Of a DNA stretch of 64,000 bases, positions 56,301 through 59,300 are shown one piece after another. Source of the stretch: Escherichia coli O157:H7 (GTDB taxonomy: Bacteria; Pseudomonadota; Gammaproteobacteria; Enterobacterales; Enterobacteriaceae); assembly GCF_013167455.1 (NCBI RefSeq), contig NZ_CP038328.1; one strand, given 5' to 3'. Position 1 is the stretch's first letter. Each line of letters begins with the position of its first letter. Position numbers: made by a program.

Positions 56301-59300
56301 CTGATTTCTGCTGCTCATACAGCAGGCGTTTAGCTTCGTCCTGGTCAGAAAAACGAGTAAGCAGGTGGCGAATCACAACCGCCAGCTCTCCTTCTATTTT
56401 TTCTGCCAGCATGGGGTCGCGTTCGTTTTCCGGTACAACCTCCGAAAAATTGAATATCACCCGACGACGTGAAATCCCCCCGCTGCGGTCACTGAATGAC
56501 ATGGCGTTATTGTTCACCGCCAACACTACCGCCTGAATGCGTGTTGAGTAGGGGGCTTTATGCTTCGGGTCGATTGCCACCTTGTCACCGCCTGTAATGG
56601 CCTTAATTCCTGCGCCATCACCAGCGTAACGGGTCATATCCGGCATGATAATCAGCGAAAAGCCAACCACTAACGCGCGTTCCCTGGCATCTTCCAGCGC
56701 CTTCATGCTTGCCGATACCGTGTTGGCCTTACCCGCCAGCATGGTGCAAATCTCCGCCATCACGCTTTTACCACTTCCCCCTGGACCTGTTACCTCAATG
56801 AATAACTGCCAGTCGTACCGGTTCGCCAGCACCATGAATAATGCAGCCAGTACGCGATCCGCCTTGCGGTCATTCTCAGCCACCGAACGGCGTAACCACT
56901 TCCAGAAATTCGGCGCATGTGTTGCCAGCGTTTCCCCCTCTGCTGGTGGGCTGAAAGGTAATTCACTGGCAATTAACAACCAGTCGTTTTTGTTATGCTC
57001 CCGAAAATCGCCTGTCCGGGTATCAAAAACACCGTTACTGAATCCAATCAGGTTACGGGCTGTATTCCCCATTACAGGCAAACTTAACTTCATGGTATCG
57101 ACCGCCGATTTAATGGCGTTCTGCGAATAGCTGATCTCCGCATCAATGAAAATCTGTGCCATAGCTCGCTGTAATTCTTTATCCTGTACTGGCTCCCATA
57201 CAACGCCGTTGTAATAGTGAACAGTGTCAGAGTCAGCATGAATCGCCAGTTCACCGCCATAATGTGCCAGGAGAACTTCGCCGCGTTGACTTGCTCCCAT
57301 CTGGTTAAGCGCCAGTGATGAAGCGTTATCGTCTTTTACCCGCTCTTTTTTCTTTACAGGCAGTTCAACTACCTTTTTCTTTTCCGCCTGCTCTGCCCGT
57401 TCACGTTCCAGATATTCGCGCCAGTTCTCCCGTTTCTGGCTGTGCATTCCTTCAGGGTAATAATCAGCATCCCTGACACCTGCCGCTGCCAGTTTCTGCC
57501 CGATGGTATTAACAAGCCCCGAACGCAATAACCCCGCCTGATAGAGACGCACGCGATAGCGTCCGTCCGGTACGATTTGCAGGTTGTCCAGTTCGGCAAG
57601 TTGTTGCTCTCCAAGCCAGACAGGTGGCACGTTATCGCCAGCCAGTCGCCCGTCCTGTTCCTGCCACTGCTTCGCATGTGCCCACGCATCACTACCCGCA
57701 AAAATGATGACTTCCGTCATTTTGTCACGTGGCTGGTGTTTTAAATTTGGCGCTTTTTTCATTTCTGCTCTCTCCACGCGGCAATCATGTTTTTCAGTTC
57801 CTGTAGTTTTTTATCAACATCCATACATGGCACATGGTTATTTCTGGAAGGCGGGATTTCCCGCCTGAATCTGCTAATAAAGATCTCCACGTTCAGCGAA
57901 CTATGAAATGAATAGCCATCACGAATAAAATACACACGGTCAAACATCAGTTCTTTTACCGTTACTCTGTTACCGTTCTTATCCAGATAAATAGCGCCGG
58001 GGATAATTTTTGGGTGTGCATAACCGCTGGCAGTCAAGCCAGATAAATATGTTCTCATGATTATTTATCCCCGATTTGAATCAGTATTCGCTTTCTTTAT
58101 GGCATTTAATGCATCTGTGGCATTTTCAATGGTGCACCGTAACGAAATATTAAACTGTCCAAGCATTGCCAGTAACAAACCGATATTACCCATATCAATG
58201 CGCATGACCTTTTCGTCATAGTCCTCATTTTCTGACGCATGCCACATCAGGCTACCAATTGACGCAACAGCCATTGATATATTGTCAGTAGCCCCATCCG
58301 CAGCGGAATAAACCTTTTTAGCAATATCATGCTCACAGTTAAAATGCGGATTAATCAGGTACTGGTAATTTGACATATCAGGCATGGCACACCCCCTGAC
58401 GAATACGGGCGGCGAATACAGCAACACAACCGGACGGGCAACGGCTACGCGCTTCGCGTTCCGTCCAGGCGGTTACGTGGATGATTTGATGTTCTGACGC
58501 GCCAAAGATGATAAAGCGCCAGAGAAAGGCGGTTTGAGAATGTACAAGGGTAGGGATAGTAGCCATGTTGGCAGCCTCCTCAGTGTGGTTAAGATAACCG
58601 CCACCGGAAACGCCAATTTCGCTGGTGGCGGACTGTACAGGGTTGGCGTAACCGGACACTGAAGAAACCGGCGCGGATTGCTCCGCCCCCGTACAGCCCA
58701 CCATTGATAAGGTGTGACTATGCGGCACAAAAAAACACGCGGGGCGCGTGTTATGCGCTTCAGTTTTGCCCAGGACGCCAATCCCGGCACCCGTTTTATG
58801 AGGTGCGCGGGAATCATAGCTATTTTCGACACTGGCGATCAACTGGTTTTTTTCTCCGATATTCAGGGCCAGAAAACGCCACACAAAGGCCGTTTGTGTG
58901 TGTACAAGGTGTGGTATATGATTTACGGCAACCATAACGGCTCCTAGTTTACGTTGTTGGTTAGAAGCCCTGCGAGTGGTAACGACACTTGCGGGGCTTT
59001 GTCTTTTCATCGATTACCTTGATAAAGGTGTCAGCCACTATATTAGTAACAGGTGTCAGCCACGTCAATAGTGTTTTTCCGTTTTCTTGTGTGTATACTG
59101 TCAGCCACCTAATAACGAGGAAATCAGATATGGCAACAAAAGCAGTTAATGCAAAATCCAAAAAGCTTGAGGCTCGAGTACCACACGCAATAGCTGATGC
59201 TGTAGAAAATTTAAAGGAAGATGGCGAAAGTACAGGGCAATTTATCGTTTCGGCACTTGAAGGCGAGATCAAACGCCGCCAGCGCCGCAAGGCCAAAGAA

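Follow-up and report, generated by a model that had tools for sequence, protein, structure and literature searches.

The stretch of Escherichia coli O157:H7 DNA analysed here (the window, 64,000 nucleotides of contig NZ_CP038328.1) probably carries, at a tRNA-Pro gene, the region that controls immunity in a satellite prophage of the P4 family, built like the seqA-CI-seqC / eta-kil region of P4. Here, a long minus-strand frame runs across an internal promoter-like site, an isrK-like RNA gene, a C4 RNA gene and the sites that C4 targets, and then ends as a small Kil/Icd-like gene. This arrangement is known already from P4. It is ordinary for that reason, and is not to be read as a novel fusion toxin.

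An earlier note on this DNA had described the frame as two Icd-like repeats read as one fused open reading frame (ORF), and offered an Ash-like fusion, a decaying duplicate or a regulated toxin as explanations. Its observation stands. Its interpretation stands in part, having missed the isrK-like and C4 RNAs, the internal promoter, and the precedent of eta and kil in P4.

A long frame with a small gene nested at its end

The protein-coding features from which the argument starts are these:

58378-58935 (185 aa) or 58378-59010 (210 aa), minus strand: Eta-like long ORF, from the ORF list and the architecture of P4
58378-58566, minus strand: Kil/Icd-like small gene of 62 aa with its stop codon, nested in the long frame as its last part
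58824-58993, minus strand: upstream copy, with a leader hairpin, degenerate b/a sites, the Shine-Dalgarno sequence AGGAG (58942-58946), the ATG at 58935 and about 27 codons
58513-58558, minus strand: downstream copy of the core repeat, inside codons 3-18 of the small gene, from the repeat search

The long frame closes with a stop codon at 58378-58380. Its internal ATG at 58935, with AGGAG 5' of it, is followed by 185 codons with no intervening stop, which confirms that the upstream copy reads straight into the downstream one. A further internal ATG, at 58566, is preceded by GAGGAGG. The 62-aa ORF that begins here had been taken for an Icd-like gene with a strong ribosome binding site, and it is one. 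It matches the NCBIfam family NF033153 (Icd-like) at 57.2 bits, against a curated cut-off of 25 bits, over model positions 1-48 of 48, and BLASTP aligns it with the Icd of a P1-type phage at 42% identity (E 1e-9). Within the long frame, the NF033153 match is confined to the last 62 codons.

The middle of the long frame belongs to a different family. Pfam Phage_ASH (PF10554) matches residues 65-158 of the 210-aa ORF (nucleotides 58818-58537) at 61.7 bits (i-E 1e-16). Homology to the Icd and to the Ash families, both of which the earlier note had supposed, is found. The Ash-like fusion, however, holds only as a family match; the matched span coincides with the isrK gene, the C4 gene and the target sites, and the conservation seen in this family may therefore largely reflect the RNAs.

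Two RNA genes between the repeats

A promoter-like site and two RNA genes, both above their Rfam gathering thresholds, take up almost all of the 306 nucleotides that separate the repeats. A second promoter-like site lies farther upstream:

58813-58842, minus strand: PLE-like internal promoter candidate, TTGATC-18-TATGAT, from a consensus scan; putative function
58730-58806, minus strand: isrK / P4 seqA-like leader RNA, Rfam RF01394, 66 bits (gathering score 50)
58621-58708, minus strand: C4 / P4 CI-type antisense immunity RNA, a full-length match to Rfam RF01695 at 77.6 bits (gathering score 45)
59040-59068, minus strand: candidate upstream promoter, TTGACG-17-TAATAT, from a consensus scan; putative function

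The isrK-like RNA carries an intrinsic terminator (stem 58734-58752 in a terminator scan). The C4 RNA folds as its family does, with a minimum free energy of -46.9 kcal/mol. The internal promoter-like site ends about 7 nucleotides before the +1 of isrK, and a -35/-10 pair stands at the matching position relative to isrK +1 in P4 and in the loci L009, L046, L011 and L034. The candidate promoter at 59040-59068 could transcribe the start of the long ORF; around it lie three TGTCAGCCAC repeats (59029-59038, 59054-59063 and 59099-59108).

Pairing of the C4 RNA with its targets

The sites complementary to C4 fall into two pairs:

58775-58781 (b1, TTGGCGT) and about 58758-58766 (a1), minus strand: sites in the isrK-like leader, from C4 complementarity
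58575-58616, minus strand: seqC-like target, with b2 (TTGGCGT) at 58610-58616 and a2 (ACACTGAGGAGG) at 58575-58586

In the leader, b1 pairs 7/7 with C4. In the seqC-like target, b2 pairs 7/7 with the C4 single strand, while a2, which overlaps the Shine-Dalgarno sequence of the small gene, pairs 12/12 with the C4 loop. Because C4 is self-complementary, folding duplexes with the whole RNA is uninformative; the probe was therefore limited to hairpin 2 and the single strand. With this probe, duplex energies are -39.5 kcal/mol for the target at the Shine-Dalgarno region and -35.0 kcal/mol for the isrK-like leader, against a background of -19.9 +/- 4.7 kcal/mol.

A comparison of six lineages shows co-variation: where the loop and single strand of C4 change, the a and b sites change with them. 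The cognate Shine-Dalgarno site gives the best duplex in 5/6 rows of the co-variation matrix; in the remaining row, that of L042, the target of the window, which shares its a site, is better than the cognate by 1.0 kcal/mol. At the isrK sites, the cognate comes first in just 4/6 rows. The sequence features that mark a P4-type locus are present here, these being a C4 gene on the same strand 5' of the small gene, a leader complementary to it, a co-varying target that overlaps a Shine-Dalgarno sequence, and a small gene nested at the end of a longer ORF that begins 5' of the internal promoter-like site and crosses the RNA genes. The proposal of a regulated toxin fits as well, in that the adjacent C4 RNA is predicted to target the small gene at its Shine-Dalgarno sequence. 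Toxicity of the product here would follow by analogy with P4 Kil, a cell-killing product according to PMC10111431 (citing Forti 1999).

Since C4 genes of this family are, as a rule, flanked by repeats, the repeated motif might itself be conserved at the level of RNA, as an extra pair of C4 targets like a1b1/a2b2 in P1 or seqA/seqC in P4, with the protein similarity a by-product. Directly 3' of the upstream motif stand GTGGCGT and ATATCGGAGAAA, the latter able to make 11/12 pairs. The canonical b and a sites, however, are found elsewhere, at the positions given above. The probe duplex is -19.6 kcal/mol for the upstream leader and -14.0 kcal/mol for the downstream motif, and the site after the upstream motif reaches -26.4 kcal/mol, short of the fifth percentile of the background (-27.5 kcal/mol). 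The motif regions thus pair with C4 at background level, the motif repeat is rejected as a seqA/seqC or a1b1/a2b2 pair, and we give this explanation the least credence of those considered. In the upstream copy, C4 complementarity has been lost.

The upstream copy is a fragment

The motif LVH(T/S)QTAF(V/L)WRF occurs twice in the long frame, as HLVHTQTAFVWRF upstream and TLVHSQTAFLWRF downstream. At the level of DNA, the core repeat is 46 nucleotides long with 76% identity (58873-58918 versus 58513-58558), and its spacing of 360 nucleotides, or 120 codons, puts the copies in frame. With gaps allowed, local alignment lengthens the duplicated stretch to about 170 nucleotides (58993-58824 versus 58621-58459). 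It is larger than the motif and takes in the hairpin of the leader, the ATG and the Shine-Dalgarno sequence before it. The DNA alignment scores 68, where shuffled sequences give a mean of 24.1 (sd 4.4) and a maximum of 41; at the protein level, the copies align with a score of 80, where no shuffle exceeded 41. Both scores are well beyond chance, and the repeat is real. That two Icd-like motifs share one frame is confirmed by the ORF list, the repeat search and these shuffle-tested alignments.

A corresponding repeat was sought in P4, where the N-terminus of kil lies inside eta. There, IMVWCVVSRADGIP aligned with VFVFAAVRRADRHP at a score of 30, below the shuffle maximum of 43, which is not significant.

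Two in-frame motifs, each with its own Shine-Dalgarno sequence and ATG, might be read as a tandem duplication of Icd fused into a two-domain division inhibitor, Icd-linker-Icd. Serial Icd modules do exist in relatives, for example in L017. Yet the second module of L017 is a complete a1b1-C4-icd unit rather than a fused domain, and the supposed linker in the window consists of a promoter-like site, two RNA genes and an intrinsic terminator. Further, only about 27 codons of the upstream copy derive from icd, and neither residues 1-123 of the long ORF nor the 77-aa upstream segment matches NF033153 at E<=1. Such a fusion is very improbable, and the idea of tandem Icd domains does not survive. The upstream copy is, on its sequence, a 5' fragment of icd with no second Icd domain. 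The notion of a decaying duplicate suits it; in a 96%-identical relative, PGAP labels the upstream copy a partial Icd-like pseudogene.

The satellite element around the locus

The neighbours of the locus identify the kind of element in which it sits:

55945-57777, minus strand: primase-like replication gene, from the ORF list; PGAP gives a homologue the name "DNA primase family protein"
59689-59895, minus strand: AlpA-like HTH gene, from the ORF list and PGAP names in relatives
60392-61651, minus strand: integrase, from the ORF list and PGAP names in relatives
61852-61928, minus strand: tRNA-Pro(GGG), from ARAGORN

The segment 59689-61928, with the AlpA-like gene, the integrase and the tRNA-Pro, is the integration end of the satellite. 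Between the long frame and alpA, the window carries a divergent YlcI/YnfO cassette. With this cassette in between, the upstream promoter and the way it is regulated would not be those of PLL in P4. On the other side, PGAP annotates the genes 3' of the small gene as hypothetical, DUF4222 and then primase, and NCBIfam gives no match for the two ORFs immediately downstream (58068-58385 and 57762-58058). The primase-like gene, downstream in the same orientation, is presumably the regulated output of the operon.

Comparison with P4, P1/P7 and Gifsy-1

P4 offers the closest parallel. There, C4 (8420-8507) and isrK (8615-8692) both lie inside an ORF at 8168-8812. This ORF, which starts with MMM, encodes 197-199 aa (eta), and its last 65 aa are the small gene (kil), whose product matches NF033153 at 76.1 bits. 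Both elements follow the same order: long-ORF start, internal promoter, isrK/seqA leader with its terminator, C4/CI, a target that overlaps a Shine-Dalgarno sequence, and a Kil/Icd-like gene. In both, the distance from the start of C4 to the ATG of the small gene is 142 nucleotides, and a small gene of 62-65 aa that matches NF033153 ends the long frame. The element type is also shared (integrase, AlpA, primase and TGTTCACC iterons).

Four differences separate the two. Immunity specificity is not the same, as the C4 loop, single strand and targets have other sequences. The spacer between isrK and C4 is 107 nucleotides in P4 and 21 in the window. The N-terminus of the long frame in the window is the duplicated 5' end of icd with its strong Shine-Dalgarno sequence. 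Last, the MMM start in P4 abuts vis/orf88, whereas in the window the YlcI/YnfO cassette separates the long frame from alpA.

What is reported for P4 guides the reading of the window. According to PMC10111431 (citing Forti 1999), CI and seqA lie inside eta and are found by the Rfam C4 and isrK models, and a constitutive promoter is internal to eta. By the same account, Kil is a truncated Eta and a cell-killing product, full-length Eta requires the upstream promoter, and termination is prevented by translation of Eta. PMC10111431 and PMC4825925 summarise the work on the kil/eta/CI/seqA/seqC region by Forti et al. 1999 (J Bacteriol 181:5225) and Sabbattini et al. 1995.

The P1/P7 relatives share some but not all of this. 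The immI operon of these phages has the order a1b1 - c4 - a2b2 - icd - ant. It shares with the window a C4 RNA and a leader of the isrK/a1b1 kind, and it has an Icd homologue; in an alignment, the ATG of this homologue falls on that of the small gene in the window. Unlike the window, it has stops in all three frames over the RNA region (2-3 stops per frame in P1-type loci), so that no eta-like frame exists there; the isrK-C4 spacing, at 100 nucleotides, is out of phase. Nor does the window have the antirepressor that follows icd in P1; no P1-like ant gene was found 3' of icd in the window, where the hypothetical, DUF4222 and primase genes stand instead.

The isrK-orf45-anrP locus of Salmonella Gifsy-1 supplies a third comparison. 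IsrK is a structural homologue of P4 seqA (PMC4825925). The layout resembles that of the window: after an IsrK-family leader with a terminator comes a small processed RNA, which occupies the C4 position and lies within an ORF. By tagging, this ORF (orf45, which contains the RNA STnc1160) is translated, and it is required for downstream expression (PMC4825925). The differences are that the downstream gene in Gifsy-1 is an antirepressor, and that IsrK of Gifsy-1 activates translation in trans (PMC4825925).

A proposed switch

If the region works as P4 does, then in the immune state the internal promoter-like site at 58813-58842 would be constitutive, like PLE. The isrK/seqA-like leader would be transcribed from it and end at its own terminator, and read-through would yield the C4/CI RNA. 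The loop of the C4 hairpin and the adjacent single strand pair, as the duplex results show, both with b1/a1 in the leader and with b2/a2. By the example of P4 and P1, this pairing would block translation of the small gene, and transcription would terminate before the replication genes. Such termination would keep the element quiescent.

In the induced state, the 185-aa frame from the ATG at 58935 would be the counterpart of P4 eta, with the upstream icd fragment supplying its translation start. Because this start lies upstream of the internal promoter, the frame could be translated only on transcripts from a farther promoter, for which 59040-59068 is the candidate. As is reported for P4, ribosomes crossing the isrK terminator, C4 and the targets would suppress termination, and downstream expression would become insensitive to immunity.

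Maintenance of the frame in relatives

This scheme assumes, of course, that the long frame is translated in the window, as the analogy with P4 suggests. A more modest reading also accepts a P4-type immunity region, but sees no gene in the long frame. The upstream copy would then be a silent scar of recombination, only the RNAs and the 62-aa gene would function, and the frame would be open merely because G+C-rich sequence, constrained by RNA structure, has few stops.

Several observations favor this reading. PGAP calls the Ash part, as well as the upstream copy, a partial pseudogene. With dinucleotide shuffles, a stop-free frame arises by chance in 3-13% of cases per lineage, which makes an open frame weak evidence alone, and in the type of the window a second frame is likewise stop-free over the span from isrK to the ATG, so that 2/3 frames are open. 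The upstream copy is missing from clusters L037, L042 and L022, which carry the same RNA cassette, and it is therefore dispensable. In one relative whose upstream copy is 100% identical, the downstream icd is annotated as frameshifted. The upstream segment, which is present in 825 E. coli genomes, is 95-100% identical among relatives, which leaves the comparison no power to detect selection on it.

Against a mere scar stands, in the first place, precedent: P4 eta is reported as translated and functional (PMC10111431, citing Forti 1999), and the Gifsy-1 ORF over the RNA in the C4 position is translated (PMC4825925). Then, the frame of the small gene has 0 stops from isrK to its ATG in all Icd-bearing satellite-type clusters, whereas the P1-type loci, whose RNAs are equally conserved, have stops in every frame. 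The isrK-to-C4 spacings (98, 125, 128, 140 and 185 nucleotides) take five values and hold one phase, with p about 0.05 by a binomial estimate that treats homologous, and so not independent, lineages. Four unrelated upstream contexts have in-frame ATGs 5' of the conserved -35, most of these ATGs with a Shine-Dalgarno sequence; even in relatives that lack the icd-derived copy, an in-frame ATG with GAGG is still present upstream of the promoter. In L007 (spacing 108 nucleotides) and L013 (98 nucleotides), the open frame over isrK and C4 begins at isrK +1, and no eta-type start was found upstream of the promoter. Taken together, we consider it rather unlikely that the long frame is silent, and prefer the P4-like reading in which it is an eta counterpart.

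A cassette that differs between relatives

The relatives in O157:H7 indicate how the repeat may have arisen. E. coli O157:H7 86-24 has an intact 65-aa Icd-like gene (WP_001453500.1, locus L052), whose leader and first ~27 codons are about 96% identical to the upstream copy of the window. This icd joins the upstream N-terminus of the window to the downstream C-terminus at a single junction. At L052, neither C4 nor isrK was found, and this satellite, unlike the window, has no long through-frame. Compared with the O157:H7 relatives, the window has an extra in-frame cassette of about 369 nucleotides at the junction CGGAGAA|TCTCAAATC, where only the microhomology AGAA is shared. The event was either an insertion into an O157-type icd or a deletion from a locus of the window type.

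One may speculate, with the balance of probability against it, that the RNA-immunity cassette (internal promoter, isrK, C4, targets and the icd start) is an exchangeable in-frame module set between icd-derived direct repeats, its icd 5' fragment having been co-opted. Were this true, the satellite would pass back and forth between a C4-controlled state and a C4-less state that has, like O157:H7, a single chimeric icd; the repeats would recombine with each other, or the element with a relative that lacks C4. The icd 5' fragment would then be a C4-insensitive site of ribosome entry, driving anti-terminating translation through the RNA genes, and the duplicated start of a toxin gene would be a functional part of the immunity switch, not a scar.

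Implications

For annotation, the value of the finding is that the region can be described as a P4-type immunity switch, in which an eta-like through-frame spans two RNA genes and ends in a Kil/Icd-like toxin gene under C4 control. Neither a novel fusion toxin nor three unrelated pseudogene fragments would be a fitting annotation. The locus also illustrates that, in Pfam, the "Ash" family corresponds to the isrK and C4 RNA genes read as protein.

Current understanding of the P4-type immunity system is unchanged by these findings. The presence and absence of the cassette, in the window and in the O157:H7 type respectively, provides a natural pair of alleles for the coupling of RNA immunity to Kil in P4-like satellites.

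An open frame with an in-frame repeat

Every feature of the locus reads on the minus strand. In its coordinates, its two strong ribosome-binding sites, and its stop-free run between two copies of an Icd-like motif, the earlier note is correct.

Features of the long frame
58378-59010, minus: long ORF, 210 aa, from the ATG at 59010 to the stop at 58378-58380 (ORF list)
58935, minus: internal ATG with AGGAG in front (ORF list, sequence)
58813-58842, minus: predicted sigma-70-like promoter TTGATC-18-TATGAT (consensus scan)
58730-58806, minus: isrK RNA (Rfam, 66 bits; gathering score 50)
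58775-58781, minus: TTGGCGT in an isrK hairpin loop, pairing with ACGCCAA of C4
58734-58752, minus: intrinsic terminator within the isrK RNA (terminator scan)
58621-58708, minus: C4 antisense RNA (Rfam, 77.6 bits; gathering score 45)
58610-58616, minus: TTGGCGT directly after C4, pairing with ACGCCAA of C4
58566, minus: internal ATG with GAGGAGG in front (ORF list, sequence)

The DNA sequence bears out the repeat. Its core is 46 nt with 76% identity (58873-58918 versus 58513-58558, repeat search), the copies being 360 nt, or 120 codons, apart. A gapped alignment widens it to ~170 nt (58993-58824 versus 58621-58459); it scores 68, where shuffled sequences average 24 and reach 41 at most. What was duplicated thus exceeds the peptide motif, and includes a leader hairpin, a Shine-Dalgarno sequence, an ATG, and ~27 codons. 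The upstream motif copy also holds, at 58880-58900 (minus), a perfect 8-bp inverted repeat, CACACAAA-N5-TTTGTGTG, and then GCGTTTTCTG; this was scored terminator-like in the consensus scan, and is absent from the downstream copy.

Two RNA genes inside the frame

The downstream 62-aa ORF is, as the note proposed, an Icd-like gene (NF033153, 57.2 bits), 42% identical to P1-type Icd, with the start codons aligned. NF033153 matches only these last 62 codons of the long frame. The first 123 codons were without a match in the protein-family search, NF033153 included, so that the idea of two Icd copies holds for the downstream one, while the upstream one amounts to ~27 duplicated codons. An "Ash-like fusion" had also been suggested. 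Pfam Phage_ASH does match residues 65-158 of the 210-aa ORF (nt 58818-58537), but the matched residues are encoded by isrK, C4, and the sequence reaching the small gene's start. The protein-family matches agree with a layout having two RNA genes inside the frame. The predicted promoter stops directly before isrK +1.

Pairing of C4 with its sites

The loop of C4 hairpin 2, UUUCUUCAGUGU, pairs at 12 of 12 positions with ACACUGAGGAGG (58575-58586), which is the Shine-Dalgarno region of the small gene. The adjoining single strand, ACGCCAA, is complementary to TTGGCGT at two places. Duplexes between the accessible part of C4 and the two site pairs have computed energies of -39.5 (Shine-Dalgarno site) and -35.0 kcal/mol (isrK site), against a background of -19.9 +/- 4.7 kcal/mol in 656 windows. 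The small gene would then be a regulated toxin, as the note allowed, given this predicted pairing and its family likeness to P4 Kil.

It was hypothesized first that the repeat itself is the RNA target pair of C4. This was ruled out, because the motif regions pair with C4 at -19.6 and -14.0 kcal/mol, no better than background; the site just 3' of the upstream motif (-26.4 kcal/mol) falls short of the background 5th percentile (-27.5).

Among six lineages, the C4 loop and single strand vary, and the sites vary along with them. In the six-lineage matrix, the cognate duplex outranks all others at the Shine-Dalgarno site in 5 of 6 rows, and at the isrK site in 4 of 6. Such co-variation is what one expects of an immunity determinant.

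Sites pairing with the C4 loop (a) and single strand (b)
Window: a, ACACUGAGGAGG; b, TTGGCGT
P4: a, UUCACAGGAGG; b, TTAGCCT
Comparison locus L009: a, ACACAAAGGAGG; b, GTGAGAA
Comparison locus L046: a, CUGAAGGAGG; b, TTGGAAC

The precedent in P4

In P4 (NC_001609), Rfam matches to C4 (8420-8507) and isrK (8615-8692) both lie inside an ORF, 8168-8812, whose MMM start gives 197-199 aa and whose last 65 aa (MATTLTPSHPEF...) correspond to the small gene. This 65-aa product scores 76.1 bits on NF033153, which places Kil and the window's 62-aa protein in one family. In both elements, 142 nt separate the start of C4 from the ATG of the small gene. The P4 RefSeq record leaves kil, eta, CI RNA, and seqA unannotated, and still carries an obsolete "cI gene product (AA 1-137)" CDS over the RNA gene.

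According to PMC10111431, which cites Forti et al. (1999), eta of P4 contains the CI gene, the Rfam models C4 and isrK pick up CI and seqA, full-length Eta is made only from an upstream late promoter, and its translation keeps termination from occurring. PMC4825925 names IsrK a structural homologue of P4 seqA; it shows that in Gifsy-1 the ORF orf45, within which a processed RNA occupies the C4 position, is translated, and that downstream expression depends on it. Because the P4 layout and these papers match, the "fused ORF" is the P4 eta/kil design, an arrangement already known. The earlier interpretation was thus right in part, having missed this design and the frame's run through two RNA genes. 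The locus departs from P4 only in its immunity specificity, its shorter isrK-C4 spacer, and its eta-like N-terminus, made from a duplicated icd start that is no longer complementary to C4.

The surrounding satellite

Around the locus stand the genes of a P4-type satellite, namely an integrase adjoining tRNA-Pro(GGG), an AlpA-like gene, and a primase gene downstream.

Neighbouring features
55709-55937, both orientations: iteron cluster, at least 10 units GGTGAACAG / CTGTTCACC, directly downstream of the primase gene
58961-59674, minus: Cys/Arg/Ser-rich ORF, 237 aa, antisense to both the YlcI/YnfO gene and the plus-strand ORF 59352-59540
59029-59038, 59054-59063, 59099-59108: three exact copies of TGTCAGCCAC (repeat search)
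59040-59068, minus: promoter-like site TTGACG-17-TAATAT, flanked by TGTCAGCCAC copies
59130-59309, plus: YlcI/YnfO-family gene (NF041551, 60.6 bits)

The iterons resemble P4's annotated ori type-1 repeats; their units hold the octamer TGTTCACC, identical to one such repeat, beside which P4 has one reading TGTTCACA. The cluster is probably crr/ori-like, and accounts for spurious sub-threshold miRNA-family matches of the Rfam scan there.

The TGTCAGCCAC copies, two of them inside 22-nt repeats, and the promoter-like site (59026-59108) lie between the eta-like frame and the divergent YlcI/YnfO-family gene. The arrangement looks like the operators of a small regulatory cassette; relatives (locus L003) have other sequence here. 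The homologue of the 237-aa ORF is annotated in O157:H7 86-24 as a 247-aa hypothetical protein, and in O26 RM8426 it is fused with the eta-like frame into a run of 432 open codons that begins right behind alpA. This ORF may be a gene, an antisense artefact, or a frame held open for translational coupling.

Possible maintenance of the long frame

A C4-core DNA pattern, applied irrespective of ORFs, collected 47 IMG/VR loci (17 clusters). In all satellite-type clusters that have an Icd/Kil gene, the frame of that gene contains 0 stops from isrK to the ATG; in P1-type loci each of the frames contains 2-3. A stop-free frame arises by chance in 3-13% of shuffles per lineage, and a second frame is also open in the window's type, so the absence of stops is suggestive only.

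The isrK-to-C4 spacings of elements with a long-frame start before the promoter (98, 125, 128, 140, and 185 nt) are all 2 mod 3; those of locus L007 (108 nt) and the P1-type (100 nt) are out of phase. Five of seven spacing classes in one phase has p ~0.05 by our own binomial estimate. All lineages have a -35/-10 pair at the same distance ahead of isrK +1, and an in-frame ATG, mostly with a Shine-Dalgarno sequence, lies 70-130 nt upstream of that +1 in four unrelated contexts (the window type, the L037/L042/L022 type, L009, and P4). Taken together with the P4 and Gifsy-1 experiments, this sequence evidence makes it likely that the long frame is translated here.

On four lambdoid-size contigs (phage contexts; L007, L013, L011, L034), the frame through C4 leads on to a long gene, Bro-N/antirepressor-like or other; L011 and L034 have an Icd-like ORF in a frame different from the through-ORF.

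Origin of the upstream copy

Among 5426 complete E. coli genomes, 825 have the 170-nt upstream segment. O157:H7 strain 86-24 carries it as the 5' end of an Icd-like gene that is intact, with 65 aa, MVAVNHIPHLVHTQTAFVWRFLALSAGESQIIHVTAWTEREARSRCPSGCVAVFAARIRQGVCHA, and whose product joins the window's upstream N-terminus to its downstream C-terminus; the informative sites switch only once, between CGGAGAA and TCTCAAATC. No C4 or isrK match was found in the 86-24 element at E<=0.1. From the single switch and this absence, the window has an extra in-frame block of ~369 nt, holding the predicted internal promoter, isrK, C4, the C4-pairing sites before the small gene, and a second Shine-Dalgarno sequence, ATG, and ~27 codons. 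The block may have entered an O157-type icd by insertion or recombination, or the O157-type state may be a deletion between the repeats. The note's decaying duplicate suits the upstream copy, which has lost C4 complementarity; PGAP splits the region of a 96%-identical strain into three pieces, of which Icd-like and ash are partial pseudogenes and the last, also Icd-like, is intact.

The same RNA cassette follows unrelated upstream sequence in L037, L042, and L022, and the left edge of the block shared with them is an A-tract just before the -35. L017 and L042 each carry two complete modules in series (a1b1, C4, icd), which are tandem immunity modules within one satellite. The paired C4 RNA genes are ~480 nt apart (L017, 2766-3693; L042, 7631-8294). 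In the second module of L017, c4-a1b1 occupies 3225-3274 and C4 3342-3429; the second, diverged Icd-like gene that comes after them (MAVSARPYFVWRFMQ...) lies within a 182-aa through-ORF of its own. Tentatively, and with rather low confidence, the duplicated start may be a co-opted, C4-insensitive ribosome entry site, and the RNA cassette a repeat-bounded, exchangeable in-frame module.
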